A stretch of DNA of 64,000 bases from Shigella phage SH-2: the sequence record PQ642267; one strand, given 5' to 3'. Below the pieces are notes generated by a model. The model was not told where the DNA came from, did not search any database, and worked only from the letters and a program-made list of their open reading frames with translations. Each line of letters begins with the position of its first letter. The first letter of the stretch is position 1. A program made the translations under genes and the position numbers. Shown here in pieces: positions 2,902-30,430 of the stretch.

Positions 2902-3903
2902 TTACTTAATTAGCTGTAAAGCTTGTTCAAGACGATCCAGACGATTAACAGATTCTTCCCAAATCCTTTTAGCCTTCTCATATTCTTTCTGCGCTTTATT
3001 AGAAATTTCTAGAACTTCTTTATAAGCTTTTTCTAGTGCAATAACTTCTGGACGAATTTCTATCGGTTCAGGCGAATCGTCAAGACATTCCATTAGTTCT
3101 TCAAGGGTAGTTTCTTCTTTAGGAGTATTCACAATTTCATCACATTTTTGTTGGTAAATTTCTTTATCAGTCGGTGAATAAGCGCATTTCACTTCACGAA
3201 GGCTAATTATAATTTTATATCCTTCCCACCCACACATATTTTTGAAAGGATATGTATGAATACTTTTTACAGTTTCCATACAGCCCAAAACCGCCTCTAA
3301 TTGATAAGTTATAGTGCTAGCAATTGAGAAAAATTTATTAATATTCTTTTGGTTAGCGTTTGGTGTAAAAAATCCATAATTCACAAAAATAGCTACTTTA
3401 TTTTTATCAAGCTCATATTCTTTTACGATAATCATATCAGAAGCCAAAGGATGAATTTGACGATAATCGCCATAACATAATTTAGAAGCTGATTTTAGAA
3501 TTTGTCCTTTGAAAAGTCTGAAATTACTAATCCAACGACGAGTAAAAATATTCTCAGGGTCTTCTTTATTATTAAGATGATAAGAATTAACATCACCGAA
3601 CCAATTATATCCTACTACATCTTTAGTTCGTTTAATTTCTTTCCCAAATTTACCAAGAATATCTCTGTTGACTAAGTATGAAAGAAGACGAGACCCTTTA
3701 AAGGTTTTCTTAATGTCATCTTTATCTGTACGACTAGAAATTTCACGAACTTCGTGAATAAATCTGCTGGAAGAAACAATGCTTACATCAATATTATTGA
3801 GCCATTGATTGATAATAGAAAGAACACTATTCTGACTAGACATAGGTTTAACTTTATCATCAATAACACTGTTGAATGATTTGATATATTCGTTACGAGT
3901 CAT
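2902..3903 (-). CDS. paralog-family protein 2 (~333 aa, C-terminal coiled coil)
   Basis: Track start 3954 is upstream of the promoter; ATG at 3901-3903 has GAGGAG SD; begins MTRNEYIKSF. Confidence 0.55.
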   Translation of the reverse strand: MTRNEYIKSFNSVIDDKVKPMSSQNSVLSIINQWLNNIDVSIVSSSRFIHEVREISSRTDKDDIKKTFKGSRLLSYLVNRDILGKFGKEIKRTKDVVGYNWFGDVNSYHLNNKEDPENIFTRRWISNFRLFKGQILKSASKLCYGDYRQIHPLASDMIIVKEYELDKNKVAIFVNYGFFTPNANQKNINKFFSIASTITYQLEAVLGCMETVKSIHTYPFKNMCGWEGYKIIISLREVKCAYSPTDKEIYQQKCDEIVNTPKEETTLEELMECLDDSPEPIEIRPEVIALEKAYKEVLEISNKAQKEYEKAKRIWEESVNRLDRLEQALQLIK

Positions 3904-7331: not shown

Positions 7332-8051
7332 TTAGGATTCTTCTAAATGTCTTTTCTGAAAAGTTGATACCATACTACGATACGGTTCATTTGGATACCC
7401 GTGTTTTATAGCTTCCTTTGTAAATTTTCTCCATCCATATTTAGTTTCTTTCCAAAGCTCGAATAATTCATCTTCATACTGCCATATAGTTAAATGAGAA
7501 CGCTTTGCAGCTTTAATTCCATTAATATGCTTTTCTTTTACTACAGGATTGTTTAGTTTCTTTTTAATAATATTACTAACTTTTCTAACAAAAACTGGGT
7601 CCTTATATCGTTGCGAAGTTTTTATTGAAGTGTTTAATTTAGCTTCCGGCGTGGATGTGACCTCTTTCATCTTTTTCTTCATATGCTGTATATGATTAGG
7701 ATTTTTCCATAAATTTATAGAATGCTTTTTGCATTTTATCCTAGTTTCATCTGCAACCTTTCCTCCTTCACCCCCGTATGACAGGTTAACACAGTTTTTT
7801 CCATATTTCAATTTACCTGCCATGATATATAATATTTCAGCTTGTACCATTTTATCATAATTATCAAAAACTTCTAAAACCGTTTTTGATAATATGTGGT
7901 CATTTGACACTTTTACACGTTCTATATAATTTCCACTACCAACATACGAATCATTGATGTTATTAGTTATATGTCGACCATAATAGTATTTCTTAATACC
8001 TGTCTTTAAATTTAATATTTCAGTTTTATAGATAGTAAAATATTTTTTCAT
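7332..8051 (-). CDS. GIY-YIG family homing endonuclease (seg-like)
   Basis: N-terminal IYK...YYYGRH...YVGSG (GIY-YIG) and NLSYGGEGG motif; parallels the segB-like protein at 26834-27499. Confidence 0.65.
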   Translation of the reverse strand: MKKYFTIYKTEILNLKTGIKKYYYGRHITNNINDSYVGSGNYIERVKVSNDHILSKTVLEVFDNYDKMVQAEILYIMAGKLKYGKNCVNLSYGGEGGKVADETRIKCKKHSINLWKNPNHIQHMKKKMKEVTSTPEAKLNTSIKTSQRYKDPVFVRKVSNIIKKKLNNPVVKEKHINGIKAAKRSHLTIWQYEDELFELWKETKYGWRKFTKEAIKHGYPNEPYRSMVSTFQKRHLEES

Positions 8052-9016
8052 TTTAATAATACCGTTTCAGCAATTTCTTCCCAACCGTTTTTGTCGGTCA
8101 TAATAAAGTCAGCAAGATAAAGAGCAGTACGCAGTGAAACATTGCGTAAACGGTTAACATTAACTTTCATCCATGATAATGCTTTATAAGTTTCTTCATC
8201 AGAAAGACCGCGCTTTTGCATCATGTCAGTTGAAAGAATAACATCTTCAACCCTGACCATAATTTCTTCATTAGTGTGAACACCCAAATCTAAATAAACC
8301 GAGCGGGACACTAATGCTTGTAAGTGTGGAGCAAGTTTAGTACCACGGTCTAATTCGCGGTCAATGTCAACGTTTGTGATAAAAACAATCGTTCCTTTAA
8401 ATTCAAACTCACGCTCAATGCCTTTTTCTTCTAAGTAAGAAGATGCAGTGCTCCAGCAGACTTTACGGGTCTCTCCAGTGTCCAGAGCGGCTTTTAGAAG
8501 ATTAAGAATGTCCATATCAGAGAAAACATCCACATCATCAATCAAAAGGACAGAATTCTCTTCACGATTATTCCAAAGCTGCTCATAAAGACCAATACCG
8601 GAGATTTTACCATTAATGCTTTTATATTCAATGTATCCAATATCATTTGCTTTATTTAAAGCTTTATCTAAAGAATACGTTTTACCAATACCTGCTGCGC
8701 CAGAGATAATCAATGAACGAATATTTCCGTTAATAATACCATTCGTCATCATTCCCATAACATTAAATCTTTTATTAATGCGGGTTTTCATATCTTCATA
8801 TGATTCTTTAACTTCTTCAACTTTTACACCATCATATGAAATATCTGATTTGTAAACCCAAACACCGCGACGTTTACCGTCAATTTCAACAAAAACTTTA
8901 CCATCTCCTTGTGCATCTACCGGAGCATTATCTGGGAACCATTCGCCTAAGAGCTCAAAAGTTCCAGAAATTTCTTTACCGAAGTAGATACCCTTATTGA
9001 TAGTTACAGTTTTCAT
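8048..9016 (-). CDS. P-loop ATPase (Walker A GAAGIGKT, Walker B LLIDDVD)
   Basis: Track start 9184 lies upstream of terminator and promoter; ATG at 9014-9016 with GGAGAA SD; Walker A/B motifs. Confidence 0.6.
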   Translation of the reverse strand: MKTVTINKGIYFGKEISGTFELLGEWFPDNAPVDAQGDGKVFVEIDGKRRGVWVYKSDISYDGVKVEEVKESYEDMKTRINKRFNVMGMMTNGIINGNIRSLIISGAAGIGKTYSLDKALNKANDIGYIEYKSINGKISGIGLYEQLWNNREENSVLLIDDVDVFSDMDILNLLKAALDTGETRKVCWSTASSYLEEKGIEREFEFKGTIVFITNVDIDRELDRGTKLAPHLQALVSRSVYLDLGVHTNEEIMVRVEDVILSTDMMQKRGLSDEETYKALSWMKVNVNRLRNVSLRTALYLADFIMTDKNGWEEIAETVLLK

Positions 9017-9049
9017 TTTATTCTCCAAATCCGTATCAGTTGATAGTTG

Positions 9050-9080
9050 TATAGTACCATAAAGCTTTATGCTTGTAAAC
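9050..9080 (-). promoter_or_regulatory. T4-type early promoter
   Basis: Minus strand GTTTAC (9075-9080) ... TACTATAC; A/T-rich upstream element. Confidence 0.5.
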
Positions 9081-9104
9081 CGTTTTGTGAAAAAATTTTT
9101 GAAA

Positions 9105-9129
9105 TAAAAAAGGGAGCCCGAAGGCTCCC
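9105..9129 (-). terminator. rho-independent terminator
   Basis: GGGAGCC-CGAA-GGCTCCC hairpin followed by T-run on minus strand, directly after stop at 9132. Confidence 0.6.
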
Positions 9130-9131
9130 TA

Positions 9132-10145
9132 TCATTTATAATAACTTCGGTGGTTTTCAAGATAAACCCTCTCAAGGAAGTCATCCCAGAAACCCATGTC
9201 TACTTTTTGTTGCATACCGTTCTTAGAAGCTTCAATGGATGCTGCTTCTACTTGATCGACCACATCTTCCAAAAACTCTTGAACGGTTTTAAATGGATGC
9301 TTACCCAGCTTCACGTCGAGAATAAATGGAGCGTCTTGAAGTGGATAAACTAAGTCACCAGTTTTGTAAATTTCCAATAGTTGGAGTCCACCACGACAAG
9401 CATGGCTCAAAGCTTTCCAGTCAATGCCCTCATTCGCTTCAGCTTTACGAGCACGTTCACCGTATTCGGCATCAAGTTTATTCAATGACTGCTTAAGCTC
9501 AATAAGAGAAAGTGTTGTCTGATATTTACGACCCAACACAGTGTAGAACGTTTGCGGGCCTGTTTTCTCATGATTATGGAATACCCATTCGCAGAATTCG
9601 TTCTCCGGAAGACGATGCTTAATATCTTCAACTTTAGTGCGACGCTGCTTAATGGAACCGTCTTCTTGGTAATCAACCCACTGATCAGGGATTTGATTAA
9701 CTACTTTCAATACATCACGCAATGCGGCCAAACGAGAACCCTTAACACCATATTTAGAAGCTTGCTTGCGGACATATCCTAAATAGGATTTCATGTTAGT
9801 CGTATAAAAACGAGAACGATTGTCTTGAATAAACTTCCATACATCAGGCAAATCAGATTTAACTACCAGTTCAGGTGGAGTGTGGAGCATATCCAATGCT
9901 ACGGTTTCACCATCTGCTGCTAATTTAAAGAAATACTTAAGACTGTATAGTTCATGGTCAATATCATCTTTAGTGTTTTTAGATGATGTGTTGTTAGTGT
10001 TTTTACTCATATGCTCTTTAACATTTCCGATAAGAATGTCGCGAGCAGGAGGAACAAAGATTTCTTTAAAATCTACATCAGATTCTGGAGTAGAAGTTCC
10101 ATAAAGATGACTACCAAAATAGCTTTTCATTACTGTTTTCATCAT
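9132..10145 (-). CDS. predicted nucleotidyltransferase-fold protein (Pol-beta superfamily signature GS-x10-DVDF)
   Basis: N-terminal GSHLYGTSTPESDVDF fits the [GS]-x9-13-D-h-[DE]-h motif; 337 aa; ATG at 10143-10145. Confidence 0.45.
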   Translation of the reverse strand: MMKTVMKSYFGSHLYGTSTPESDVDFKEIFVPPARDILIGNVKEHMSKNTNNTSSKNTKDDIDHELYSLKYFFKLAADGETVALDMLHTPPELVVKSDLPDVWKFIQDNRSRFYTTNMKSYLGYVRKQASKYGVKGSRLAALRDVLKVVNQIPDQWVDYQEDGSIKQRRTKVEDIKHRLPENEFCEWVFHNHEKTGPQTFYTVLGRKYQTTLSLIELKQSLNKLDAEYGERARKAEANEGIDWKALSHACRGGLQLLEIYKTGDLVYPLQDAPFILDVKLGKHPFKTVQEFLEDVVDQVEAASIEASKNGMQQKVDMGFWDDFLERVYLENHRSYYK

Positions 10146-18769: not shown

Positions 18770-19072
18770 TTATTTACCTTTAATTACTTTAGCTGCTTCG
18801 ATAGCCGCTTGCTGAAGGTCATCCATAGACATACCGAATTTAGAAGCAAAGTTATCAATTTTCTTTTCGACAGCATTCAAAGGCTTGGCCTGTTTACCTT
18901 CATTAGCACCAGGAAGAGCGAGAATACGCTCTTTGTCAATATAAAGGCTTACAAGTTTCTTACGGTCTTTATCGGACAAATCATGAAATGAATGGGCCTT
19001 TTTATTTATAGCGGCTTCTAATTTACCTGCACTCACTCGCGCTTCAGTAATAAATTCTTGATATGTTTTCAT
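18770..19072 (-). CDS. internal head protein, IPII-like (100 aa, capsid-targeting leader MKTYQEFITE)
   Basis: N-terminal leader with predicted gp21 cleavage site after ITE; 100 aa as T4 IPII. Confidence 0.65.
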   Translation of the reverse strand: MKTYQEFITEARVSAGKLEAAINKKAHSFHDLSDKDRKKLVSLYIDKERILALPGANEGKQAKPLNAVEKKIDNFASKFGMSMDDLQQAAIEAAKVIKGK

Positions 19073-19090: not shown

Positions 19091-19408
19091 TTATTCTTTA
19101 GGGAAGTTTTTAGAATATGCATCATAAAGCTTATTTCCAATACGGCGGAAAACTCTAGCCGCAAAACGATTTTCTGGGTTTTTAATCATGATTTGCATCA
19201 TATAAGTACCCGCGTCAGAAAGAGCTTCTTCATAGTACCCATTAATTTCTTTAAGAGTCCTACGTTTACCACCAGGACCATCAACAGTAATTTTCCATTT
19301 ACCTGTAGAAGTGCGGCTCGGTGGCTCAACTTGTTCAATCCAAATATAACCTCCTTCTACACGTTGTCCTTGGGCAGATTCTGCAATAAATTCTTTATAC
19401 GTTTTCAT
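19091..19408 (-). CDS. internal head protein candidate (105 aa, leader MKTYKEFIAE)
   Basis: Same leader class; body not recognised as T4 IPIII (194 aa in T4). Confidence 0.6.
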   Translation of the reverse strand: MKTYKEFIAESAQGQRVEGGYIWIEQVEPPSRTSTGKWKITVDGPGGKRRTLKEINGYYEEALSDAGTYMMQIMIKNPENRFAARVFRRIGNKLYDAYSKNFPKE

Positions 19409-20424: not shown

Positions 20425-20880
20425 TTAAAAGAGGCTGTTCATTATTCGGTAAAGTGAAGGACCCATCACATATTGCCACTGAGTACGAGGAATAAGGGCA
20501 AAAGCATCCATCTCTGGAATCATAACACCATCTTTATTTTCAAAATAAGACTCGCAATGGCAATTTCTAAACATCTCATGCTCTACTGGAATCGTATAAT
20601 AAAATAACTGTAAGTCTTTATTACTAGAATATTTAAATACACCTAGGTCTTCTAGAAGGTCTGGACTATAATTGCTAAAACCGGTCTCTTCTAAACATTC
20701 TCTTCGTGCTGCATCTAGTGCGCTTAAATCAGAATTTTCTACGCGGCCCTTTGGAATATCCCAGCGATGTGCCATCATTCCAGGCTTACGAGAACCAGTA
20801 ACCCGTCCCATGAATAAATCTTTATCTTCGGTCATAAAGATAATACCAGCTGATAGTGTTTTCATTTTAATTTCCTGCAT
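20425..20880 (-). CDS. nudE: Nudix hydrolase
   Basis: 151 aa; Nudix box G...RECLEETGF; position next to e as in T4 (e.1). Confidence 0.7.
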   Translation of the reverse strand: MQEIKMKTLSAGIIFMTEDKDLFMGRVTGSRKPGMMAHRWDIPKGRVENSDLSALDAARRECLEETGFSNYSPDLLEDLGVFKYSSNKDLQLFYYTIPVEHEMFRNCHCESYFENKDGVMIPEMDAFALIPRTQWQYVMGPSLYRIMNSLF

Positions 20881-21350
20881 TCAGTGATAAAGTTATTTAA
20901 ATTTTGAGTATATTTCTTTTCATCAAAAATCTTTTGTTGTCTGCGTAGTCGCCATGGCATTTCAATGAACACGCACCATATTCCTGATAGTACTGCTGCT
21001 GTAAAAATATTAACAAGTATAATTAAAAGAATCCAATCTTCCGTTCTGCCTACTGGACTTTCTCCAAAGAAGCAAAATACAAATGATGTCACAGGAAAAC
21101 TAATAATATACCACAGAATAACCTTCTTATCTGTGAACCAATCAGCGTTCGTTAATTTAGCGCGACCATTATGAATACACACGAATTTATCATCTGTTGC
21201 AGTAGATGGCTTAACTGGCTGATATCCCATTCTAAACTCCCTAATTAACAAATTTTTCATATCTTCGGAACAGCCATTCCAGTCAACTCTATCAACTGGA
21301 ATGCCATCGTCCCCATCATCTAAATCATACCAGCGAGTTTTTAAAATCAT
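20862..21350 (-). CDS. predicted membrane protein (162 aa)
   Basis: Hydrophobic helices ILWYIISFPVTSFVFCFFG and WILLIILVNIFTAAVLSGIWCVFI. Confidence 0.45.
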   Translation of the reverse strand: MILKTRWYDLDDGDDGIPVDRVDWNGCSEDMKNLLIREFRMGYQPVKPSTATDDKFVCIHNGRAKLTNADWFTDKKVILWYIISFPVTSFVFCFFGESPVGRTEDWILLIILVNIFTAAVLSGIWCVFIEMPWRLRRQQKIFDEKKYTQNLNNFITECRKLK

Positions 21351-21721
21351 TTGATTTTCCTACAATCATTCACGAATTCTTTCATTGATTCATTTTCAAT
21401 ATAAGACATGTAGTTATTATATTCTTTTAATTGTATTTTGTAATCCTTTTTTCTTTGCCAATTTATTTTAAAATTATCATAATGAAAATATAAAATAATA
21501 CCAAAGAATGAAAATAATGAAATCGCTATAGTATAATGAAGTTCACTCCAAACTTCTATTATATCTACTATACCGCTGACGTTACTGCGGATGTTTAAAA
21601 TAATACAGTCAATCATTAATCCAATAAGACTACCAGCAAGAGCTGCAGCCAACGCCACAGCAAAAATTAAAAATGACTCAGAAAAAGAATATTTGACTTT
21701 ATTTAGTTTTGGCTTTTGCAT
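21347..21721 (-). CDS. predicted membrane protein (124 aa)
   Basis: Two TM-like segments. Confidence 0.45.
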   Translation of the reverse strand: MQKPKLNKVKYSFSESFLIFAVALAAALAGSLIGLMIDCIILNIRSNVSGIVDIIEVWSELHYTIAISLFSFFGIILYFHYDNFKINWQRKKDYKIQLKEYNNYMSYIENESMKEFVNDCRKIK

Positions 21722-22095
21722 CGTGATTCCTTAACAAATTTCATAATTTCATTAAATTCATACATATTTAGTTTAAGCTGGTGTTCCTTTTTAATCTTTT
21801 TACACTGAGCTTTCCATTCACGTACACGTTTACGATAATGCCTTCCTTGATACCAATATCCTACCCAATTTACAGGTACCAATAAAAATGGAACTACTAA
21901 TGGAAGAATTAATACTAACAAAAATATTACGCCAGATTCAATATCAGTCATAAAGTCTATAACCATTCCAACAATCAATAGAATTACAAATGATATAGCT
22001 GTCACAGGACCTATTAATACATCAGTAGGAATTAGCTGACGCTTTAGTTCATACTTCACAGGTTTACTTGGAAGGTATAGTGATGGCTTTGACAT
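21703..22095 (-). CDS. predicted membrane protein (~130 aa)
   Basis: Track start 22116 is TTG; ATG at 22093-22095; two TM-like segments. Confidence 0.45.
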   Translation of the reverse strand: MSKPSLYLPSKPVKYELKRQLIPTDVLIGPVTAISFVILLIVGMVIDFMTDIESGVIFLLVLILPLVVPFLLVPVNWVGYWYQGRHYRKRVREWKAQCKKIKKEHQLKLNMYEFNEIMKFVKESRCKSQN

Positions 22096-22669
22096 ATTCT
22101 CTACATTCCTTAACAAATTTTTCTAATAATAAATCGCTTTCAAAATTAGGATTTTCCACGAATTTATCAAAAAGATCATCAACGATAGTTAAGATATTCT
22201 TTTTACTAAGAATACGCTTATTTTCATATTTTGTTTCAGAGTCAACTATAAGAGTAAAGAAATATTTCTTTCCCTGAAATTTTACCGTAGTATCAATATA
22301 AAATAAATTTGACTTTTGTAAATTACGTTTAAACCATGCGTCACTTAAACTATAAACGCCAAGATAATCATAATCGTCATTTAAATAACAAACTGTCCAT
22401 TCAGGAGAAATGAAATCAGTAAATTCAACATCAAAATCACATGTCAATGAATGAATTGATTCAATACTTTTAATGAGTATTCCAGGACGTATTAAAGACT
22501 TTTTACCTTTATAAAATCCAGAAAGACTTTCATCAGTTTCATATGAAGAGCTCCAATAGTAATTACGTCCTTCTGCCATGCGTTTAAGAGCATTTAGTAA
22601 TTGGTCTGGAACATCAACTTGTCTTTGGAACTCTTCAAACATTGAATTGAAATCACTTTGCATTTTCAT
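22064..22669 (-). CDS. hypothetical protein (201 aa)
   Basis: ATG with AGGAA SD; no motif recognised. Confidence 0.45.
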   Translation of the reverse strand: MKMQSDFNSMFEEFQRQVDVPDQLLNALKRMAEGRNYYWSSSYETDESLSGFYKGKKSLIRPGILIKSIESIHSLTCDFDVEFTDFISPEWTVCYLNDDYDYLGVYSLSDAWFKRNLQKSNLFYIDTTVKFQGKKYFFTLIVDSETKYENKRILSKKNILTIVDDLFDKFVENPNFESDLLLEKFVKECREYVKAITIPSK

Positions 22670-22710
22670 TCCTATTTACTCCAAGTAATAGGGGCCGAAG
22701 CCCCTTATCA

Positions 22711-23304
22711 TTATTTCAGAGAATTAATATATTCCTGGACATCGGCAGAGGTAGTTTCAACCCCGGAAATATTACCGTTAAAGGTTTCAACTCGAGCAAG
22801 GGTATCTTCAATATCAACCTTAGTCAGTGCTGCAATTTCAACTACATCATCGGCAGTACTAATTCCAAGGGCATTTGCCGCACGAGTTTCACGGATATAT
22901 TCCAATTTAACCGCAAGTTCTTGGCGAGCATCATCTAACTCAACTACTTTCTTGGCGATTTCAATTCGCATTTCAGCATAACCGTCAGCCTTAGTAGTCA
23001 ACTGCTCAGCTGTTCGACGATATAGTAAACCGAGTTTAGCATGCATTGTTACATCTTGACCTTCGGAAAGAAGTTTACGAATTTCACGCTCTTTTGATTC
23101 GGCTTGTCGATTCTTTTCGATAATAAGTTCACGAATACGTTTTTCTTCATTAATAGATTTAACAGAAGCAGTTTTTAGATCTTTAATTTTATCAAGCAGT
23201 TTTGCTGCTGCAGCAGTATACTGTTCTTCAACAGATAGATTTTTAGCCATAGCAGAACCAAGTTTAGTGCGAATAAACTCAACAATTTTCTTCAGTGTGT
23301 TCAT
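22711..23304 (-). CDS. coiled-coil protein, possible PspA/IM30-like
   Basis: 197 aa, largely alpha-helical/heptad; N-terminal pattern loosely resembles PspA. Low confidence. Confidence 0.4.
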
Positions 23305-23347
23305 AGTATTTCCTTAGGTTGATTAAGATTTAAAATCTGTGGAAGAA

Positions 23348-23878
23348 TTATATCCCATTATTTGAGAGATGTAAACTATTTTTAATTTTACAAATTCGTT
23401 CAGCTTCATCGATAGCAGCATTAATAATGCTTTTAGCTATAGGAGTACTAATACTAGTAGCTTTTACACTTAACACGATTTCTTTATTTTTACCAGGCCA
23501 ACCCCACGATTTTTCACCGTGAGTGCCTTTAATTACAGCAGACACCTCAAGTGAGCATCCATTATCACATGTTTTTACATTAACAACCCAAGGGTCACTT
23601 TTCTCAATCGGTTTCTCAATCGGTTTATCCCAGTAAATATTAAGAATACGTGGAACATCAAATTTGGCAGGACAAATCTTAACCGTAAGACCTTCGCTTT
23701 CTAGCCAATTAATAAGAGGGCGTTCATACAGGCGACGATGTGGGCTTGGGATTCGACAAGCCTTATGTCCGTTGCTTGCGGCTTCACTAAGCTGTTCTAA
23801 TACCTGCTTTTGCATTATTGATAAAATACCATCAAAAGATCTTTCGGAAGTTTCATTCAGTTCAGTATAAAGAGACAT
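23348..23878 (-). CDS. hypothetical protein (176 aa)
   Basis: ATG with GAGGAAA SD. Confidence 0.45.
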   Translation of the reverse strand: MSLYTELNETSERSFDGILSIMQKQVLEQLSEAASNGHKACRIPSPHRRLYERPLINWLESEGLTVKICPAKFDVPRILNIYWDKPIEKPIEKSDPWVVNVKTCDNGCSLEVSAVIKGTHGEKSWGWPGKNKEIVLSVKATSISTPIAKSIINAAIDEAERICKIKNSLHLSNNGI

Positions 23879-23940: not shown

Positions 23941-24279
23941 TTATTCTTCATCTGAATTCAGCGTAATAAAGTCATCGATGGCCTCTATAATAGCATCGTT
24001 AATAGCCAGTAAAATAAAATCGTCGTCAGTACCTTTATAAGATTCTGAAGCATTGATATATGCTTGATTGGCGAGTTCCCAAGCCTTTTTAAAATAAGGA
24101 GCTTCATCATCAGGACAAATATCCCGCACACCTTCAAAGATACGATTGGCATAATCTAACACCCATTGTACAGGCATGTTTTGAGAACGTTCATTAAACT
24201 CTTTAAAGTCCTTAGATTCAAAAAGCTCTTCGGGATAATAATTTCGATTACAAAAAGCTTTACTAAAGTTACGTTTCAT
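23941..24279 (-). CDS. hypothetical acidic protein (112 aa)
   Basis: ATG with AGGAGA SD. Confidence 0.45.
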   Translation of the reverse strand: MKRNFSKAFCNRNYYPEELFESKDFKEFNERSQNMPVQWVLDYANRIFEGVRDICPDDEAPYFKKAWELANQAYINASESYKGTDDDFILLAINDAIIEAIDDFITLNSDEE

Positions 24280-24334
24280 AATGTTCTCCTCAAGTTACAG
24301 GCTCATAATATCTCAATCATGAGCCTGTGTAAAC

Positions 24335-24598
24335 TTATTTCATATTATTGAAATATTCTTCTGCGATTTCGTCGTTATCATGGTAAACTTTAGAAGACAG
24401 TTTAACATAACCTTCTGCTGTGAACATGTTAATCACAACCTTTACAGTATACCACTGACCGTCTTCATTACCCATTACTGCGTAAGTTTCAAACATCGGA
24501 TGGTCAGGACCGATAACTTTAATATCATTCACAGTACGACCGAAATCTTCTGAAACACATTTCATAAAGAAGTTGAACAGTTCGCCGTAATTATCCAT
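24335..24598 (-). CDS. hypothetical protein (~87 aa)
   Basis: Track start 24610 is TTG; ATG at 24596-24598 with GGAG SD. Confidence 0.45.
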   Translation of the reverse strand: MDNYGELFNFFMKCVSEDFGRTVNDIKVIGPDHPMFETYAVMGNEDGQWYTVKVVINMFTAEGYVKLSSKVYHDNDEIAEEYFNNMK

Positions 24599-24640
24599 TT
24601 CATTCTCCAAGTTGTTTTCTGTATCAGTAGTTGATAGTTG

Positions 24641-24671
24641 TATAGTACCATGGAAGAACAGGGATGTAAAC
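24641..24671 (-). promoter_or_regulatory. T4-type early promoter
   Basis: Minus strand GTTTAC (24666-24671) ... TACTATAC. Confidence 0.5.
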
Positions 24672-24837
24672 AGTTTTGTGAAAAATTTTTTAAAAAGTTT
24701 TAGGGAATTCTAGGGATGGAAGGGGCAATTAAAGGATAGGATAATATATTATAAAGGGTAGAAACTAAATGATGCCTAGAGAGGTCCAGAAAGGCCTAGA
24801 TGTCAAAAGGCCCTATCATTTAGATAGGGATTTAAAA

Positions 24838-25401
24838 TTATTTATCTAGTTTAGTTATTATAGCTTCTGCGGCAGCTTTTAGCTTAGATGCGGTGTTAAT
24901 ACGATTTTTAATTTCAGTATACGCATCGCCAAGAACGTCAAGGCTATCAGAATAAACACTTACACTATTGCGTTCGCTATTTGAAATAGAACCTTTAGTT
25001 TTACGATCAAAATCGGTGTACACGTCTTGAAGATCACGGGCTGCCTTCTTTGCATCATCCAATGCATCAAGAGCTTTATTCAAAGCATTAACGTATTTTT
25101 TAGTGTCGAACATATTCTTAGAAATTTTAACAGGTGCGCGTTCAGGAGTAGCTAATGCAGATTTAGGAACCTGAGCGCCAGATGCCAATTTCTTAGAAAT
25201 TTTGAAAAACGCTTTATTGAATTTATTTTCTTGACTCATCGTAAAAGAACTATTATCGATGTTGTACATTTCAATAGCTTTAGCTTTCCACTTAAGAAAA
25301 TCGCCTCGGTCTTTTGGGTCCAAGTGGAAGAATACTTTAGTAAGATCTGCTTCAGATGGTAATTTTGCTGCTTCGGTTAAAAATTCGGCATAGGTTTTCA
25401 T
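24838..25401 (-). CDS. candidate capsid-targeted internal protein (187 aa, leader MKTYAEFLTE)
   Basis: N-terminus matches the leader of IPI/IPII (MK[TS]Y.[EQ]F...E); predicted gp21 site L-T-E/A. Confidence 0.55.
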   Translation of the reverse strand: MKTYAEFLTEAAKLPSEADLTKVFFHLDPKDRGDFLKWKAKAIEMYNIDNSSFTMSQENKFNKAFFKISKKLASGAQVPKSALATPERAPVKISKNMFDTKKYVNALNKALDALDDAKKAARDLQDVYTDFDRKTKGSISNSERNSVSVYSDSLDVLGDAYTEIKNRINTASKLKAAAEAIITKLDK

Positions 25402-25491
25402 TTAAAATCCTTGAAATAATTTATCGGTTGGTTATTAATTATTTATTACTTTGTTATTATCCGTAACAGCATTCTCTATGTGATTCAAACT

Positions 25492-25516
25492 AAAAACCCC
25501 AACCTTTCGGTCGGGG
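25492..25516 (-). terminator. rho-independent terminator
   Basis: CCCCGACC-GAAA-GGTTGGGG hairpin plus T-run on minus strand. Confidence 0.6.
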
Positions 25517-25525
25517 CTAAGAATG

Positions 25526-25999
25526 TTATTTGATTTGTTTAGCAGACCAAATGCGGTCTTTGATGATTTTTTGGATGTCTTCAACATACTCTAGGTCATG
25601 AGCATGTGGGTTATCTTTGAAACTATAAGCACGAGCTAGTTTTTGGCCTTCAGTTTTGATTACTAAAAGCTCTTTAAGGATAGCTTCATATTTAGCGATA
25701 ATTCCTTTAACAATATTTTTTTCTTGTGCAGCTTTAGGATCTGCTTTAGGAGCAGGTTTACCCGAAGCCTTTGCAAAAGCAGCACCAGTAGCAACTAAAC
25801 TTTTCCAGGCCATACTAACCGCATTTCCTGTAAATCCTTCTGCTTTCATGTCGCGAGCAAACTGGAATCGTGATTCGTCAGAAGCATCTTTATAGGAATA
25901 TTTACCCGCTGCAATGGCTGCTTTTGCGACAGCTTGAATTTCGGTGCTAGATGCTTCATTTAACACCGCTTCATTTAAAAATTGAGCATATGATTTCAT
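25526..25999 (-). CDS. candidate capsid-targeted internal protein (157 aa, leader MKSYAQFLNE)
   Basis: Same leader class with L-N-E/A site; flanked by terminators; late promoter upstream. Confidence 0.55.
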   Translation of the reverse strand: MKSYAQFLNEAVLNEASSTEIQAVAKAAIAAGKYSYKDASDESRFQFARDMKAEGFTGNAVSMAWKSLVATGAAFAKASGKPAPKADPKAAQEKNIVKGIIAKYEAILKELLVIKTEGQKLARAYSFKDNPHAHDLEYVEDIQKIIKDRIWSAKQIK

Positions 26000-26038
26000 C
26001 TTATTTCCTGTTTTAATTCGTGATTTAATATACTACTA

Positions 26039-26046
26039 TATTTATA
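26039..26046 (-). promoter_or_regulatory. late promoter (TATAAATA on minus strand)
   Basis: Plus-strand TATTTATA at 26039-26046, ~40 nt upstream of ATG at 25999. Confidence 0.5.
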
Positions 26047-26048
26047 CT

Positions 26049-26075
26049 AAAAAGCCCCAACCTTTCGGTCGGGGC
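26049..26075 (-). terminator. rho-independent terminator (same hairpin as 25492-25516)
   Basis: GCCCCGACC-GAAA-GGTTGGGGC plus T-run on minus strand. Confidence 0.6.
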
Positions 26076-26128
26076 TAAGCCTTGCGGCAACCTTGTCGGG
26101 GTTCCACCTGCTAAGGCAAGTGTTTGTA

Positions 26129-26219
26129 CGAAACGCCGGGATTCGAACCCGGTTATTAAGCAGTTGACGCTACTCAATATTTTTAAAAGGCCATATCTCG
26201 ACCATATCCGAACGTTCCG
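26129..26219 (-). ncRNA. tRNA-like stable RNA candidate (canonical T-arm CCGGGTTCGAATCCCGG, atypical body)
   Basis: Minus-strand T-arm and a 7-bp acceptor-like pairing (CGGAACG/CGTTTCG) spanning ~91 nt; no standard cloverleaf found by eye. Confidence 0.3.
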
Positions 26220-26387
26220 TCAAAAACGCTACTCGGCTTACGGCAAAGATATTTCCTCGAATCGATAATTCGGTGCGCCGTTTCTGCTGTGATGTAAAGG
26301 GATATTAACAAATCGTAAAGATTTATTAAGACCAGTCCTTACGCAGGGAACATCAGTCCGACGACTTACCGGTAGCGACCCGGTTTC

Positions 26388-26738
26388 TTAATATTCTTTT
26401 AAAGCATCAATCTGTTCACGACGTTTACGCCATAAATCAATTGCTTCATACGCAGATTCAGCATTTCGAATTGGACGGCATTTATATAAAGATTTGTGAT
26501 TTTGATATTGTGTAGATAACGGAATTTTATCTAAAAGGTCTTTACGTTCAAAGTATTCGTAACCATCTAAGCCAAATGAACGATTTTTGAGAAATTGCCA
26601 ATGACCGTATTCGTTTTCGACATAAACATAATCCGCGTGTTGATAAAGCAAATTAATTACACGTTCAGAAATAACAGTGTCATTGTGATTAAAATAAAAT
26701 GTTAAATCATGAACTACTAAATAAACATTACCTTTCAT
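26388..26738 (-). CDS. hypothetical protein (116 aa)
   Basis: ORF track; lies between tRNA-Arg and the tRNA-like region. Confidence 0.4.
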   Translation of the reverse strand: MKGNVYLVVHDLTFYFNHNDTVISERVINLLYQHADYVYVENEYGHWQFLKNRSFGLDGYEYFERKDLLDKIPLSTQYQNHKSLYKCRPIRNAESAYEAIDLWRKRREQIDALKEY

Positions 26739-26754
26739 ATTTTCCTCACTTAAT

Positions 26755-26830
26755 TGGTCGAGGCAGTAGGGATCGAACCTACGACCTAGGACTTAGAAGG
26801 TCCTTGCTCTTCCTTCTGAGCTATGCCCCG
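26755..26830 (-). tRNA. tRNA-Arg (anticodon TCT), CCA encoded
   Basis: Manual fold: acceptor CGGGGCA/TGCCTCG, D-arm GCTC/GAGC, anticodon loop CTTCTAA, T-arm GTAGG-TTCGATC-CCTAC, 76 nt. Confidence 0.8.
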
Positions 26831-26833
26831 TAA

Positions 26834-27499
26834 TTAAAATTTCATTTTTCGACCTTTAAACCATCCTTCTGGAATTGGGTCAGTTTTCTTAATACGTTTA
26901 GAAACTTTTTCATCTAATGAATGAATCCACATCATACCAAATTGGGAATTCTTTTCTCCTTTCTGATGATTATTTTTAGCGTGAATTTCTTTCATTTTAT
27001 TAATAGTTTCAGGAGTATGATGCTTATTTAAAAATCTGCTATTATTTAAAAATTTTTCCTTGTATTCAGGAGTTGACCACAAACGTTTAAATACATTTGA
27101 ACCAATTTTACGATATTTTTCTTGAAGTAAAATATCATTTTCAAAACGTGATTTAAACGATTTAGCTCCTTTTAAACTAGCATCTTTCTTCTGGTTTAGC
27201 ATCCCAGGAATATTTATATGGTCCCATCCACCTTCACCACCAAGTTTTAAATTATACACATCTGGTCTATTTAAAAACTCTTCTGTGACAATATTTTTCT
27301 CAGCTTCAAGCATAGATTCTTTATCATCAAAATACTCTAATATTTCTTTAGAAAAATTTTCTATACCATACTTGTCTTGGGCTCTTTTTAATAATTTACC
27401 AGAACCCATATATCCATCATCTAAATTTTCGGTAGAATGCACACCAATATAAATTTTATTATTAATTTTATTTGTTATTTTATAAAGATAAAAATGCAT
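26834..27499 (-). CDS. segB: GIY-YIG homing endonuclease (SegB-like)
   Basis: YLYKI...IYIGVHST...YMGSG motif; ATG at 27497-27499 gives 221 aa; alternative ATG at 27541. Confidence 0.7.
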   Translation of the reverse strand: MHFYLYKITNKINNKIYIGVHSTENLDDGYMGSGKLLKRAQDKYGIENFSKEILEYFDDKESMLEAEKNIVTEEFLNRPDVYNLKLGGEGGWDHINIPGMLNQKKDASLKGAKSFKSRFENDILLQEKYRKIGSNVFKRLWSTPEYKEKFLNNSRFLNKHHTPETINKMKEIHAKNNHQKGEKNSQFGMMWIHSLDEKVSKRIKKTDPIPEGWFKGRKMKF

Positions 27500-27545
27500 A
27501 TCAGTCCCTAATAAAGAACTGAGCGTCTCACGACGAGTCATAAAT

Positions 27546-27619
<74 letters not shown>

Positions 27620-27624
27620 AAATT

Positions 27625-27711
27625 TGGTGCGAGAAGTGGGACTCGAACCCACAAGGAAATCATTCCGCAGCATTTTAAGTGCTGTGCCTTTACCAATTTG
27701 ACCATTCTCGC
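27625..27711 (-). tRNA. tRNA-Leu (anticodon TAA), class II long variable arm, CCA encoded
   Basis: Acceptor GCGAGAA/TTCTCGC, anticodon loop CTTAAAA, T-arm GTGGG-TTCGAGT-CCCAC, 87 nt. Confidence 0.8.
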
Positions 27712-27717
27712 TCTATA

Positions 27718-28350
27718 TTATTTATTACGTGAAAAAGATTGTTCTATCAATTCTGGACACTTTCGTTCTATCCATTTTCTAGCTTTTTGTGGGCTTATAC
27801 CTATTATTTTAGCAGCTTTACTAACCCATCCAAATTTAGAATAATCGATTTTAACTAATTCTTCGTAAATTTCATCAGTTAAAATGTTTTCATTAATATT
27901 TACCAGTAAATGATATAATTTATTATCATTAGCAATTTTAATGAATCTTTTATAGTTTCCGCCTTTACTTAAACCTAATGAAGTAATTGCAGATGATATA
28001 GTAGCAGAATTTAATAATGCGTTTAAAATTTCTTCATCACTAACATTATAACGCTTTTTATTATTTTTAATATTTTTACCAGCAAAAGTATCAGTTTGCG
28101 AATGGCAATTTGGACATAATAATCTTAAATTTGATTTAAGATGATTTTTGTTATTTCCGTCAATATGGTCTAATTGCAGAACAATATGCTTATTTTGCCA
28201 TTTTGAAATTTTACAAATTGCACACTCATATGGAAAAATATTTTCTTTTATTATTTTATCTTTCAGCTTTCCTGTACTAAAATTTGGATGTTTTCCTTCA
28301 AAAATTTCAGCTAATTTAGTATCCATAATATAATTCCCAATTATTAACAA
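27718..28350 (-). CDS. HNH homing endonuclease (mob-like) with C-terminal helix-turn-helix
   Basis: CAICK...H-x-DHIDGNNKN...CPNCH (HNH zinc motif); abuts the 5' end of tRNA-Leu. Confidence 0.65.
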   Translation of the reverse strand: MLIIGNYIMDTKLAEIFEGKHPNFSTGKLKDKIIKENIFPYECAICKISKWQNKHIVLQLDHIDGNNKNHLKSNLRLLCPNCHSQTDTFAGKNIKNNKKRYNVSDEEILNALLNSATISSAITSLGLSKGGNYKRFIKIANDNKLYHLLVNINENILTDEIYEELVKIDYSKFGWVSKAAKIIGISPQKARKWIERKCPELIEQSFSRNK

Positions 28351-28436
28351 AGGCTCTCAGGAAAGAACCCTTGATGATAGAGGGTATTAATCAGTGCGAT
28401 ATGAGTTAATAATAACAAATAATTCTTAAAGCATAT

Positions 28437-28730
28437 TTACCATTTATGATAATACATATTTACGATGCATTCAAGACCCAAAGGATTCTTGAAAATATCA
28501 TATTCAAGAGGACCTTTTTCTGTTTCAATAAAGAAATCAAAGTTAACTGTGTTAAATTTACGGTCTTCCTTTACTAATTTAACCTGAGAAGATGAACGGT
28601 CAATGTAAACCTTTTCAACTTCAAAATATGTTAAAATGCCATAATCATCAATCAAGGATTTAGCTGCTTCTTGATCATATTTATATCCATTTTCAATGGA
28701 TGATACTTTCGCGTAAAGAATCATTATCAA
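28437..28730 (-). CDS. hypothetical protein (97 aa)
   Basis: ORF track only. Confidence 0.4.
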   Translation of the reverse strand: MIMILYAKVSSIENGYKYDQEAAKSLIDDYGILTYFEVEKVYIDRSSSQVKLVKEDRKFNTVNFDFFIETEKGPLEYDIFKNPLGLECIVNMYYHKW

Positions 28731-29149
28731 CCTTCATCAACAATAGTATGAGTATGGGCATTTACGATTTGCCACCAATCAAAGCGATTAGAACCATACA
28801 TCGGTTTGTTTTCATTTTCTTTGATAATATCACGGAGTTCATCTTCGGTAGCGGCTTTCGCGATTAAATCAGCATATCCACCGCGAGGATAATAATTATC
28901 ACCTGCAAAAAGTAAAAAGTTTGGTTTAATATTATTGAACTCTTCAAGAGTAATAACTTTTCCTGATGGTAGTTGAACAATCTCTACATATTTATATCCT
29001 AATTTTTGAGCAGCATCTACTGCTTCAAGCAAAGTATCATGAGCCCATCCAATTTGACAACCTGGCTTTTCAGATGGATTAGCCTGATAATCCGCATACA
29101 CTTTATACATTCTATTCACCTTTAGAAATTTTATCCATAACGATAGCAA
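28727..29149 (-). CDS. hypothetical protein (140 aa; start uncertain)
   Basis: ORF track; likely starts at an internal Met. Confidence 0.4.
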   Translation of the reverse strand: MLSLWIKFLKVNRMYKVYADYQANPSEKPGCQIGWAHDTLLEAVDAAQKLGYKYVEIVQLPSGKVITLEEFNNIKPNFLLFAGDNYYPRGGYADLIAKAATEDELRDIIKENENKPMYGSNRFDWWQIVNAHTHTIVDEG

Positions 29150-29297
29150 TTAAACCAATTAAAAATGCTACTACAAGTGAAAACACATTTTCTGCTGTAG
29201 TTAATAATCCACATATAAATCCAACAAACATTGAAAAACTAAAAGCAGAAGCAGAAATTGCAATAGCAACATTTCGAATTAATTCACAACGTTTCAT
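29112..29297 (-). CDS. small hydrophobic membrane protein (61 aa)
   Basis: ATG with AGGAGA SD downstream of early promoter; two TM-like segments. Confidence 0.4.
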   Translation of the reverse strand: MKRCELIRNVAIAISASAFSFSMFVGFICGLLTTAENVFSLVVAFLIGLIAIVMDKISKGE

Positions 29298-29323
29298 TTT
29301 ATTCTCCTCAGTAGTTGATAGGG

Positions 29324-29355
29324 TAATAGTATCACAACTAAAACCCTATGTAAAC
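29324..29355 (-). promoter_or_regulatory. T4-type early promoter
   Basis: Minus strand GTTTAC (29350-29355) ... TACTATTA. Confidence 0.45.
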
Positions 29356-29373
29356 AACTTTGTGAAATATTTA

Positions 29374-29661
29374 TTACAAAAGATTTTTAGCAATAATCTT
29401 GAGATGTGCCACAGAAATGTGTTTAGCTTTAAACAACGCAGTTTCTTCAGCAGGAGAGATAATGATTGTAGCACCATCCTTTTTAGCAGACCACCCATCA
29501 CCTAGGTAAACAGTACCTTTGATTTCTTCGCCATCAACCAAACTAATCATTGGTTTACCTTCTCGTCCTTTATTTGCTTTAATAACTTCAGAAGTAAGAG
29601 TAGCTTCAGTAATAGTAGAAACCGGGGTAGTTTTTGTAGTAAACTCTTTGAAAGTTTTCAT
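29374..29661 (-). CDS. ipI: internal head protein I (IPI-like; leader MKTFKEF...ITE/A)
   Basis: 95 aa with capsid-targeting leader, located before 57B as in T4. Confidence 0.7.
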   Translation of the reverse strand: MKTFKEFTTKTTPVSTITEATLTSEVIKANKGREGKPMISLVDGEEIKGTVYLGDGWSAKKDGATIIISPAEETALFKAKHISVAHLKIIAKNLL

Positions 29662-29689
29662 TTTATTTTCCTAATTAATTTTGATGAGA

Positions 29690-29721
29690 TAATAGTATCA
29701 CTACCTCATCAACGTGTAAAC
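29690..29721 (-). promoter_or_regulatory. T4-type early promoter upstream of ipI
   Basis: Minus strand GTTTAC (29716-29721) ... TACTATTA. Confidence 0.45.
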
Positions 29722-29733
29722 AACTTTGTGAAA

Positions 29734-30430
<697 letters not shown>

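Follow-up and report, generated by a model that had tools for sequence, protein, structure and literature searches.

Members of the PspA/IM30 (Vipp1)/LiaH family (PF04012) generally act together with small membrane partners, and the gene for the PspA homologue adjoins genes for small integral membrane proteins in the PspB/PspC system of E. coli, the LiaI-LiaH system of B. subtilis and the PspA-PspM system of mycobacteria, where PspM has two transmembrane helices and LiaI is a small transmembrane protein (PMC11237479). Phage-encoded members are not mentioned in that large comparative survey of phage-shock-protein systems, nor in a review from 2025 on ESCRT-III in bacteria and archaea. The idea of a phage-borne PspA is not wholly new, given the 'pspA-like gene' of the 'Jug' jumbo gut phages, which resembles the gene described here in being a phage PspA-family gene transcribed in a stress-type operon, but which is mentioned in passing, lies beside terD and belongs to 360-400-kb Bacteroides phages (PMC12880540). 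Here we describe gene e.6 in a stretch of 64,000 nt (the window) from Shigella phage SH-2 (PQ642267), together with the genes e.5, e.4, e.3 and e.2 that follow it and whose products share a C-terminal tail. As judged by profile comparison, e.6 genuinely belongs to the PspA/IM30 (Vipp1) family, which represents the ESCRT-III superfamily in bacteria, but as a distant and strongly diverged member. We put at roughly 0.62 the probability that e.6 and its downstream genes form a phage-supplied module for maintenance of the membrane and the proton-motive force, in which the tail-bearing proteins serve e.6 as partners or anchors.

The window comes from a Tequatrovirus, a T4-type phage. Its G+C content is about 35%, and the region is 98.7% identical at the DNA level to Citrobacter phage CrRp10, with matches in 642 phage records, mostly of Tequatrovirus. 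Comparison with the annotated T4 record identified the five open reading frames (ORFs) as T4 e.2, e.3, e.4, e.5 and e.6, all on the minus strand, and the main subject is the following gene:

22711-23304, minus strand: e.6, 197 amino acids (aa), 99% identical to T4 e.6, a divergent PspA/IM30-family protein by profile comparison

A preliminary description of this DNA, made from the letters alone, had tentatively likened the 197-aa protein to PspA/IM30, and this likeness was upheld by profile-profile comparison (hhalign) with controls, by a PDB profile search, by Foldseek and by family members that pass the Pfam threshold. A shallow e.6 alignment compared by hhalign with the single E. coli PspA was uninformative (probability 0.5%), and with the shallow family profile Vipp1 was matched weakly (E 1.4-3.4) yet over the full length, from residue 4 of both proteins onward. 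We then used an alignment of 42 sequences (A2), consisting of the e.6 family plus divergent members from a HMMER search. Searched against 177,635 PDB sequences, the A2 profile found Vipp1 first (E 8.3e-5, residues 1-146 aligned to 1-147), with Vipp1/PspA making up eight of the nine best matches. Comparison of A2 with a PspA/Vipp1 alignment by hhalign gave a probability of 92% (P 6.6e-7, score 49.8) over 167 co-linear columns, which pair e.6 residues 1-175 with PspA residues 1-171.

Controls were included in the hhalign comparison, since coiled coils are notorious for false profile matches. The explanation addressed by these controls, that e.6 is a generic coiled-coil scaffold or adaptor whose likeness to PspA is an artefact of composition and heptad periodicity, draws on the weak matches of single family members to many unrelated coiled-coil families in Pfam, but it is largely refuted and we regard it as highly improbable. 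Reversal of the PspA alignment or of the e.6 alignment lowered the score from 49.8 to 20.6 and 19.7, respectively, while 30 heptad-block shuffles reached 23.9 at best (median 16.1), and circular permutations recovered the native N-terminal register every time. The alignment is co-linear from residue 1 by every method used. When 350,542 PDB chains were searched with Foldseek, all eight best matches were Vipp1 chains, followed by the archaeal ESCRT-III protein CdvB2. Finally, five A2 members individually matched Pfam PspA_IM30, and two of the family, P0065 (35.1 bits) and P0066 (39.0 bits), exceeded the curated PF04012 gathering score of 33.9, with residues 6-146 aligned to profile positions 2-143. 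Along their whole length, both also match the profile built from T4-type e.6 alone, at about 1e-20. As the e.6 of the window itself falls below this threshold, its membership in PF04012 is transitive, making it a distant subfamily rather than a canonical member; scans of e.6 against NCBIfam and PHROG ('unknown function') gave no PspA match. The e.6 subfamily is mostly missed by current Pfam and HMMER models, and this lack of detection of the T4-type members is one difference from the described PspA/IM30 proteins.

The predicted architecture agrees with the profile alignment. The AlphaFold2 (AF2) model of e.6 has a mean predicted local distance difference test score (pLDDT) of 78.8 and is almost wholly helical, in line with the helical protein announced in the preliminary description, with helices at residues 2-22, 25-80 and 86-145. 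The helix boundaries match those of alpha0, alpha1 and alpha2+3 of PspA/Vipp1, and correspond to the following parts of the gene:

23239-23301, minus strand: alpha0 equivalent, e.6 residues 2-22, a basic amphipathic N-terminal helix, predicted by AF2 as a helix at low pLDDT
22870-23232, minus strand: long helical hairpin, e.6 residues 25-145, equivalent of alpha1 and alpha2+3, AF2 pLDDT 85-97

The putative alpha0 of e.6 has a hydrophobic moment of 0.45 and a net charge of +3, compared with moments of 0.42 for PspA and 0.57 for Vipp1. In 32 members of the family, with identities down to only about 20%, this helix has a mean moment of 0.42 and a mean charge of +2.7, with the hydrophobic side on the same face (R = 0.96), while control windows in alpha1 to alpha3 of the family are less amphipathic. 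The most conserved block of e.6, at the start of alpha2 (HAKLGLL; A-[KR]-x-x-L), aligns with LARAAL of PspA, or LAR(A/E)AL in PspA/Vipp1. Further downstream, ARVETF of e.6 was aligned locally with ARFESF of PspA in the alpha4/alpha5 region, where the PspA family has conserved F-E-x-x-E-like and L-x-x-L-K motifs; this region is shorter in e.6 and has a pLDDT of 47-75. The C-terminus of e.6 pairs with PspA ...ISEQLAQLKAKM in the global mode of hhalign, and YINSLK was paired with PspA QLAQLKAKM in global mode only. Taken from profile and model, e.6 thus matches PspA/Vipp1 co-linearly from residue 1, through a predicted alpha0 and alpha1 / alpha2+3 hairpin, followed by a shortened region with uncertain alpha4/alpha5 equivalents. 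The likeness to the PspA/IM30 (Vipp1)/LiaH family therefore comprises a co-linear profile match from alpha0 to alpha3/4, the same helix boundaries, a basic amphipathic N-terminal helix and the alpha2 block, while e.6 differs in being encoded by lytic phages and in its diverged alpha4/alpha5. With archaeal and eukaryotic ESCRT-III proteins (CdvB, Snf7, CHMP) e.6 shares the helical-hairpin core, and CdvB2 and Snf7 are among its structural matches, but these matches are weaker than those to Vipp1. We saw no Vps4-type ATPase or MIM motif near e.6, although no systematic search for these was made.

The bridging proteins P0065 and P0066 are encoded on phage contigs that also carry UvsX, gp41 helicase and DNA ligase, and relatives that are 77-85% identical to them occur in Ackermannviridae, for instance in Kuttervirus FEC14. 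A plain tblastn search with P0066 matched 530 phage records, including RB43 (1e-18), the 'e.6' of Aeromonas phage 44RR (2e-9) and T4-type phages (about 1e-4), with nearly all of the matches annotated as 'hypothetical'. Hundreds of genomes of Straboviridae and Ackermannviridae carry a member of the e.6 family, and the hosts of phages with such a member include Aeromonas, Klebsiella and Serratia. The family is compact, spans these two phage families and appears to be restricted to phages wherever its context was examined. A search with canonical E. coli PspA matched 2 of 50,697 phage records. In some records and clusters (among PV390659.2, PV102577.1, OR354874.1 and UniRef clusters) e.6 goes under the name 'host specificity protein', as does e.5 in one record under that of 'site-specific RNA endonuclease'; no support was found for either label, and both look like propagated annotation errors.

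This distribution bears on the alternative that e.6 is a molecular mimic of host PspA, which binds PspF or PspB/C and thereby silences or hijacks the phage-shock response. E. coli PspA binds PspF through its alpha1-alpha3 hairpin region, and e.6 retains this hairpin. We nevertheless consider such mimicry very unlikely. In the PDB profile search e.6 matches cyanobacterial Vipp1 at E 8e-5 but E. coli PspA only at E 2.5, and being so much nearer to Vipp1 it neither looks host-derived nor is a recent capture from the host. The hosts of phages with this family, among them Aeromonas, Klebsiella and Serratia, moreover differ in their Psp systems. The conserved basic amphipathic alpha0 suits binding to membranes rather than to PspF, and with host transcription shut off by T4, regulation of PspF would be largely pointless.

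The four genes downstream of e.6 are the second component of the proposed module:

22064-22669, minus strand: e.5, 201 aa, soluble protein, predicted alpha/beta, phrog_2607 ('unknown function')
21703-22095, minus strand: e.4, 130 aa from ATG (137 aa from TTG at 22116), two transmembrane helices, phrog_2604
21347-21721, minus strand: e.3, 124 aa, two transmembrane helices, phrog_2330
20862-21350, minus strand: e.2, 162 aa, 76-aa N-terminal cytoplasmic domain and two transmembrane helices, phrog_2203 ('membrane protein')

The order of transcription is e.6, e.5, e.4, e.3, e.2, nudE and e (lysozyme), with e.7 and e.8 upstream of e.6. The preliminary description had listed three membrane protein genes followed, after one intervening gene, by the 197-aa gene; all of these ORFs lie where it placed them, but in transcription the order is the reverse, with e.6 first and the membrane proteins after it. 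Successive genes overlap by 32 nt (e.5/e.4), 19 nt (e.4/e.3), 4 nt (e.3/e.2) and 19 nt (e.2/nudE), and e.5, e.4, e.3 and e.2 are apparently a chain of translationally coupled genes. The e.2 gene of T4 itself (T4 3153-3461) is truncated to 102 aa, with loss of the second transmembrane helix and of the C-terminal FITECR, and is followed by an unannotated gap of about 160 nt before nudE. As the full 162-aa form is kept here and in many relatives, the reference T4 allele looks degenerate.

Using Kyte-Doolittle hydropathy with a 19-residue window, we found exactly two segments of transmembrane strength in each of e.2 (77-95 and 106-124), e.3 (17-35 and 61-79) and e.4 (28-46 and 55-73, numbered from the ATG), with peaks of 1.78-3.08, whereas none of five neighbouring soluble proteins reaches 1.6. 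This agrees with the two helices predicted earlier for the ORFs of 162, 124 and about 130 aa. The charge distribution predicts an N-in/C-in topology for all three proteins, which would place their tails in the cytoplasm, on the same side as e.6 and e.5. The e.3 protein gives a weak match to phrog_2604, the family of e.4. Neither Pfam nor NCBIfam was matched by e.2, e.3 or e.4, and no homology to PspB, PspC, LiaI/LiaF-TM or PspM was detectable, so that as partners of a PspA-like protein they would be analogous and not homologous to those of the Psp systems.

The e.5 protein lacks a transmembrane segment by hydropathy, and its AF2 model is poor (pLDDT 59.6), with an alpha/beta core and a C-terminal helix (179-195) that carries the tail motif. 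Small alarmone synthetases (RelA-SpoT) filled the Foldseek top 10 for e.5, at TM-scores of about 0.24 and probabilities of at most 0.38 with this low-confidence model; e.5 had no Pfam match and no PDB sequence-profile match, leaving this lead unsupported, and it was rejected. A precomputed database annotation assigns Pfam PF26876, a model outside the Pfam copy scanned here, to e.5 homologues.

The C-terminal tail shared by these proteins follows the pattern F[IV]xxCR, is carried on a predicted cytoplasmic helix at the end of each product, and is encoded at the following positions:

22100-22117, minus strand: e.5 tail FVKECR, in the C-terminal helix, ...EKFVKECREYVKAITIPSK
21718-21738, minus strand: e.4 tail variant FVKESRC, ...MKFVKESRCKSQN
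21359-21376, minus strand: e.3 tail FVNDCR-KIK, C-terminus ...KEFVNDCRKIK
20874-20891, minus strand: e.2 tail FITECR-KLK, C-terminus ...NNFITECRKLK

In the window, [FW][IVL]xxC[RK] occurs in three of the 97 called genes, namely e.2, e.3 and e.5, with e.4 carrying a variant. Among 33 non-redundant loci, the motif was present in 97 of 406 genes downstream of e.6, compared with 5 of 463 genes upstream (Fisher, about 1e-28), an enrichment of about 29-fold. In 40 related viral contigs e.6 is always followed directly by an e.5-like gene, which bears the motif in nearly every locus inspected, while the e.5-like proteins themselves range from 93 to 290 aa and vary widely in sequence. The e.5-like gene is usually followed by one to five genes for proteins with two transmembrane helices and a C-terminal FIxxCR(K). 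In divergent branches, with relatives only about 20-25% identical, the motif is still found beside e.6, as in FISECRRRVCCQ, FIDECKAIVKAGR and the FIHSCKK of RB43. In Ackermannviridae-type loci, including Kuttervirus, the PspA-like gene is followed by one for a membrane protein that is anchored at its N-terminus and has a similar tail, I[ILV]xxAR; by BLASTP, the T4-type e.2-e.5 proteins resemble none of the products of genes downstream of e.6 in Ackermannviridae-type contigs. Tail-bearing and membrane-protein genes downstream of e.6 are thus a conserved linkage of Straboviridae and Ackermannviridae loci. Compared with the Psp partner systems, these phages differ in having several paralogue-like putative partners each, plus a soluble e.5, and a common F[IV]xxCR tail, and we found no such tail described for Psp partners.

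As the codons for VKE in the tails of e.5 and e.4 hold AAGGA, a Shine-Dalgarno sequence just before the start of the next gene (read from T4 guide-RNA sequences and not from the window DNA), we tested whether the tail could be explained at the RNA level. In the tail codons Cys is encoded equally by TGT (51) and TGC (51), Arg is spread over six codons and third positions carry little information, and a Shine-Dalgarno-like 4-mer is present in only 13 of 80 unique motif instances. Because synonymous codons vary freely and such 4-mers are scarce, a DNA or RNA element (a recombination linker or an embedded Shine-Dalgarno sequence) was rejected as the main cause, and selection of the tail at the protein level is indicated.

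A second, unrelated family, likewise marked by a C-terminal motif, was observed in other T4-like phages and is absent from the window. There, runs of proteins of 65-150 aa are inserted between the e.4-like and e.2-like genes (loci L012, L013, L022, L026, L032, L033 and L045, at about 7700-9200), and these small proteins end in W(V/I/F)(S/A/N)SSxxC or ...SSC, for example GGWVSSSMEC.

Two regulatory elements flank e.6:

23347-23375, minus strand: site resembling a T4 early-type σ70 promoter, immediately before e.6, with GTTTACA and TATAAT 17 nt apart
22690-22705, minus strand: GC-rich hairpin with a UUCG tetraloop, GGGGCUUCGGCCCC, -12.2 kcal/mol, 6 nt past the e.6 stop codon and before the e.5 ribosome-binding site

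The promoter-like site matches the consensus at 11 of 12 positions and was the best site in a 6-kb scan. In a further difference from the described PspA/IM30 proteins, e.6 has no PspF-type regulator and is expressed from a phage early promoter. The hairpin is probably an RNA-stability or attenuation element, as it is not followed by a U-tract. In T4, the RNAs of e.2-e.6 are all classed as early, and mass spectrometry detects all five proteins, with e.4 and e.5 early, e.6 and e.2 middle, and e.3 late (PMC9697503). The e.6 promoter lies within the 3′ end of a gene for a 176-aa protein (23348-23878, minus strand; phrog_6869), located between e.7 and e.6 and absent from T4. Its product has no Pfam match, and its relatives in other phages have a common C-terminal ...EA(E/G/R)RIC(K/R)xKN.

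The separate promoter and the stable hairpin between e.6 and e.5 are among the features that would be expected if e.6 were PspA-like and its neighbours functionally unrelated, with e.2-e.5 acting as independent superinfection-exclusion, anti-defence or lysis-modulating factors in a hyperplastic early region and the tail serving for self-association, for turnover or for recognition by a factor of the host or the phage. How many tail genes there are, and which, also differs greatly among phages, with unrelated small genes between them, Aeromonas-type loci have the tail on the e.5-like gene only and no transmembrane proteins nearby, and T4 carries a truncated e.2 without apparent consequence. We consider this alternative rather unlikely, as the position right after e.6 is taken by a motif-bearing gene in nearly all loci inspected, down to relatives of about 20-25% identity, and by a membrane protein in a second phage family, the motif is strongly enriched downstream of e.6, and PspA homologues in general act with small membrane partners. 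The conserved gene order and the common C-terminal tail give independent support to the view of these genes as a module.

In the favoured reading, that of a phage-supplied maintenance module, it is probably the phage itself that maintains the host inner membrane. By analogy with PspA, LiaH and Vipp1, e.6 would use alpha0 and the hairpin to bind the inner membrane on its cytoplasmic side, where it would polymerise, and the polymer may prevent leakage across the membrane and sustain the proton-motive force while infection proceeds. Since host transcription is shut off by T4, the infected cell cannot induce the σ54-dependent psp response; e.6 would substitute for this response, which is not inducible after T4 infection. 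Loss of membrane potential triggers holins prematurely, and e.6 may also guard against depolarisation that would fire the holin early. With lower confidence, the common tail could be an interaction module that ties the soluble e.5 and the fast-evolving two-helix membrane proteins to one partner, for which the e.6 polymer would be the most economical candidate, and the two-helix proteins might in that case serve it as anchors or sensors, a role that PspB/C, LiaI and PspM have towards PspA homologues. Lysis timing, superinfection exclusion and resistance to membrane-targeting abortive infection, which the preliminary description had put forward, are plausible roles for the e.6 module. A more far-reaching proposal, which we offer tentatively and with some doubt, is that T4-like and ViI-like phages carry their own ESCRT-III-type system that replaces the host phage-shock response, in which an e.6 polymer would be recruited by F[IV]xxCR on the e.5 adaptor and on diversifying two-helix membrane proteins.

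Several observations weigh against the assignment of e.6 and its neighbours to such a module. Pfam gave no PspA_IM30 match for e.6 or 30 close relatives, even at E <= 10, and a HMMER search of 1.84 billion representatives with a profile of close relatives returned only 45 proteins, all of about 200 aa and none of them PspA; the link between e.6 and PspA consequently depends on profile-profile comparison and on the bridging members. The PspA/Vipp1 alignment used in that comparison is of low diversity (effective number of sequences, Neff, 1.9), since two rounds of gathering yielded almost only Enterobacterales PspA and Synechocystis Vipp1. AF2 confidence is low for alpha0 and for the C-terminal third of e.6; the protein is about 25 residues shorter than PspA, and the equivalents of alpha4 and alpha5 are uncertain. 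The I[ILV]xxAR variant is too short, and occurs in too few loci, for statistical security, and e.6 has no cysteine that could pair with the conserved Cys of the tail. In the CRISPRi-ART study, T4 e.2-e.8 are listed as of 'unknown function' and 'Not Fit', meaning that knock-down carried no fitness cost in standard culture (PMC11879866). Dispensability in rich culture also fits an accessory, stress-conditional role.

Other features of the window were also noted. Four ORFs (18770-19072, 19091-19408, 24838-25401 and 25526-25999, all on the minus strand) begin with MK(T/S)Y(Q/K/A)(E/Q)F(I/L)(T/A/N)E, a start which we take to resemble the N-terminal capsid-targeting sequence of T4 internal proteins, and this suggests that the set of internal-protein-like genes differs from that of T4 and is larger. 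The 157-aa gene at 25526-25999 is flanked by two nearly identical GC-rich hairpins (26053-26076 and 25495-25518, minus strand), one just upstream and one just downstream, with the sequence AGCCCCGACCGAAAGGTTGGGG[CT]T followed by T-runs, which look like terminators. ARAGORN detected only two tRNA genes in the scanned range 24000-30000, Arg-tct (26755-26830) and Leu-taa (27625-27711), while the corresponding region holds eight tRNAs and segB in T4 and ten tRNAs in phage P8.

In the open-access and bioRxiv literature we found no paper that describes T4 e.6 or its relatives as PspA- or ESCRT-III-like, although structure-based annotation may already have flagged them, and there appears to be no earlier report of a cryptic PspA subfamily that is conserved throughout both Straboviridae and Ackermannviridae and has a tail-marked set of partners. 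Even for T4, the reference among lytic phages, e.6 remains a conserved hypothetical gene in PHROGs, in the 2025 CRISPRi-ART table and in phage GenBank records. The F[IV]xxCR tail connects small membrane ORFs that were previously unlinked, and provides a new experimental handle. The finding bears on how infected cells stay energised after host shut-off, on how lysis timing is shielded from accidental depolarisation, and on phage resistance to membrane-targeting defences. If the more far-reaching proposal is true, infected cells would owe it to an ESCRT-III-type system that they stay energised in the face of damage by injection, superinfection, premature firing of the holin or membrane-depolarising abortive-infection effectors.

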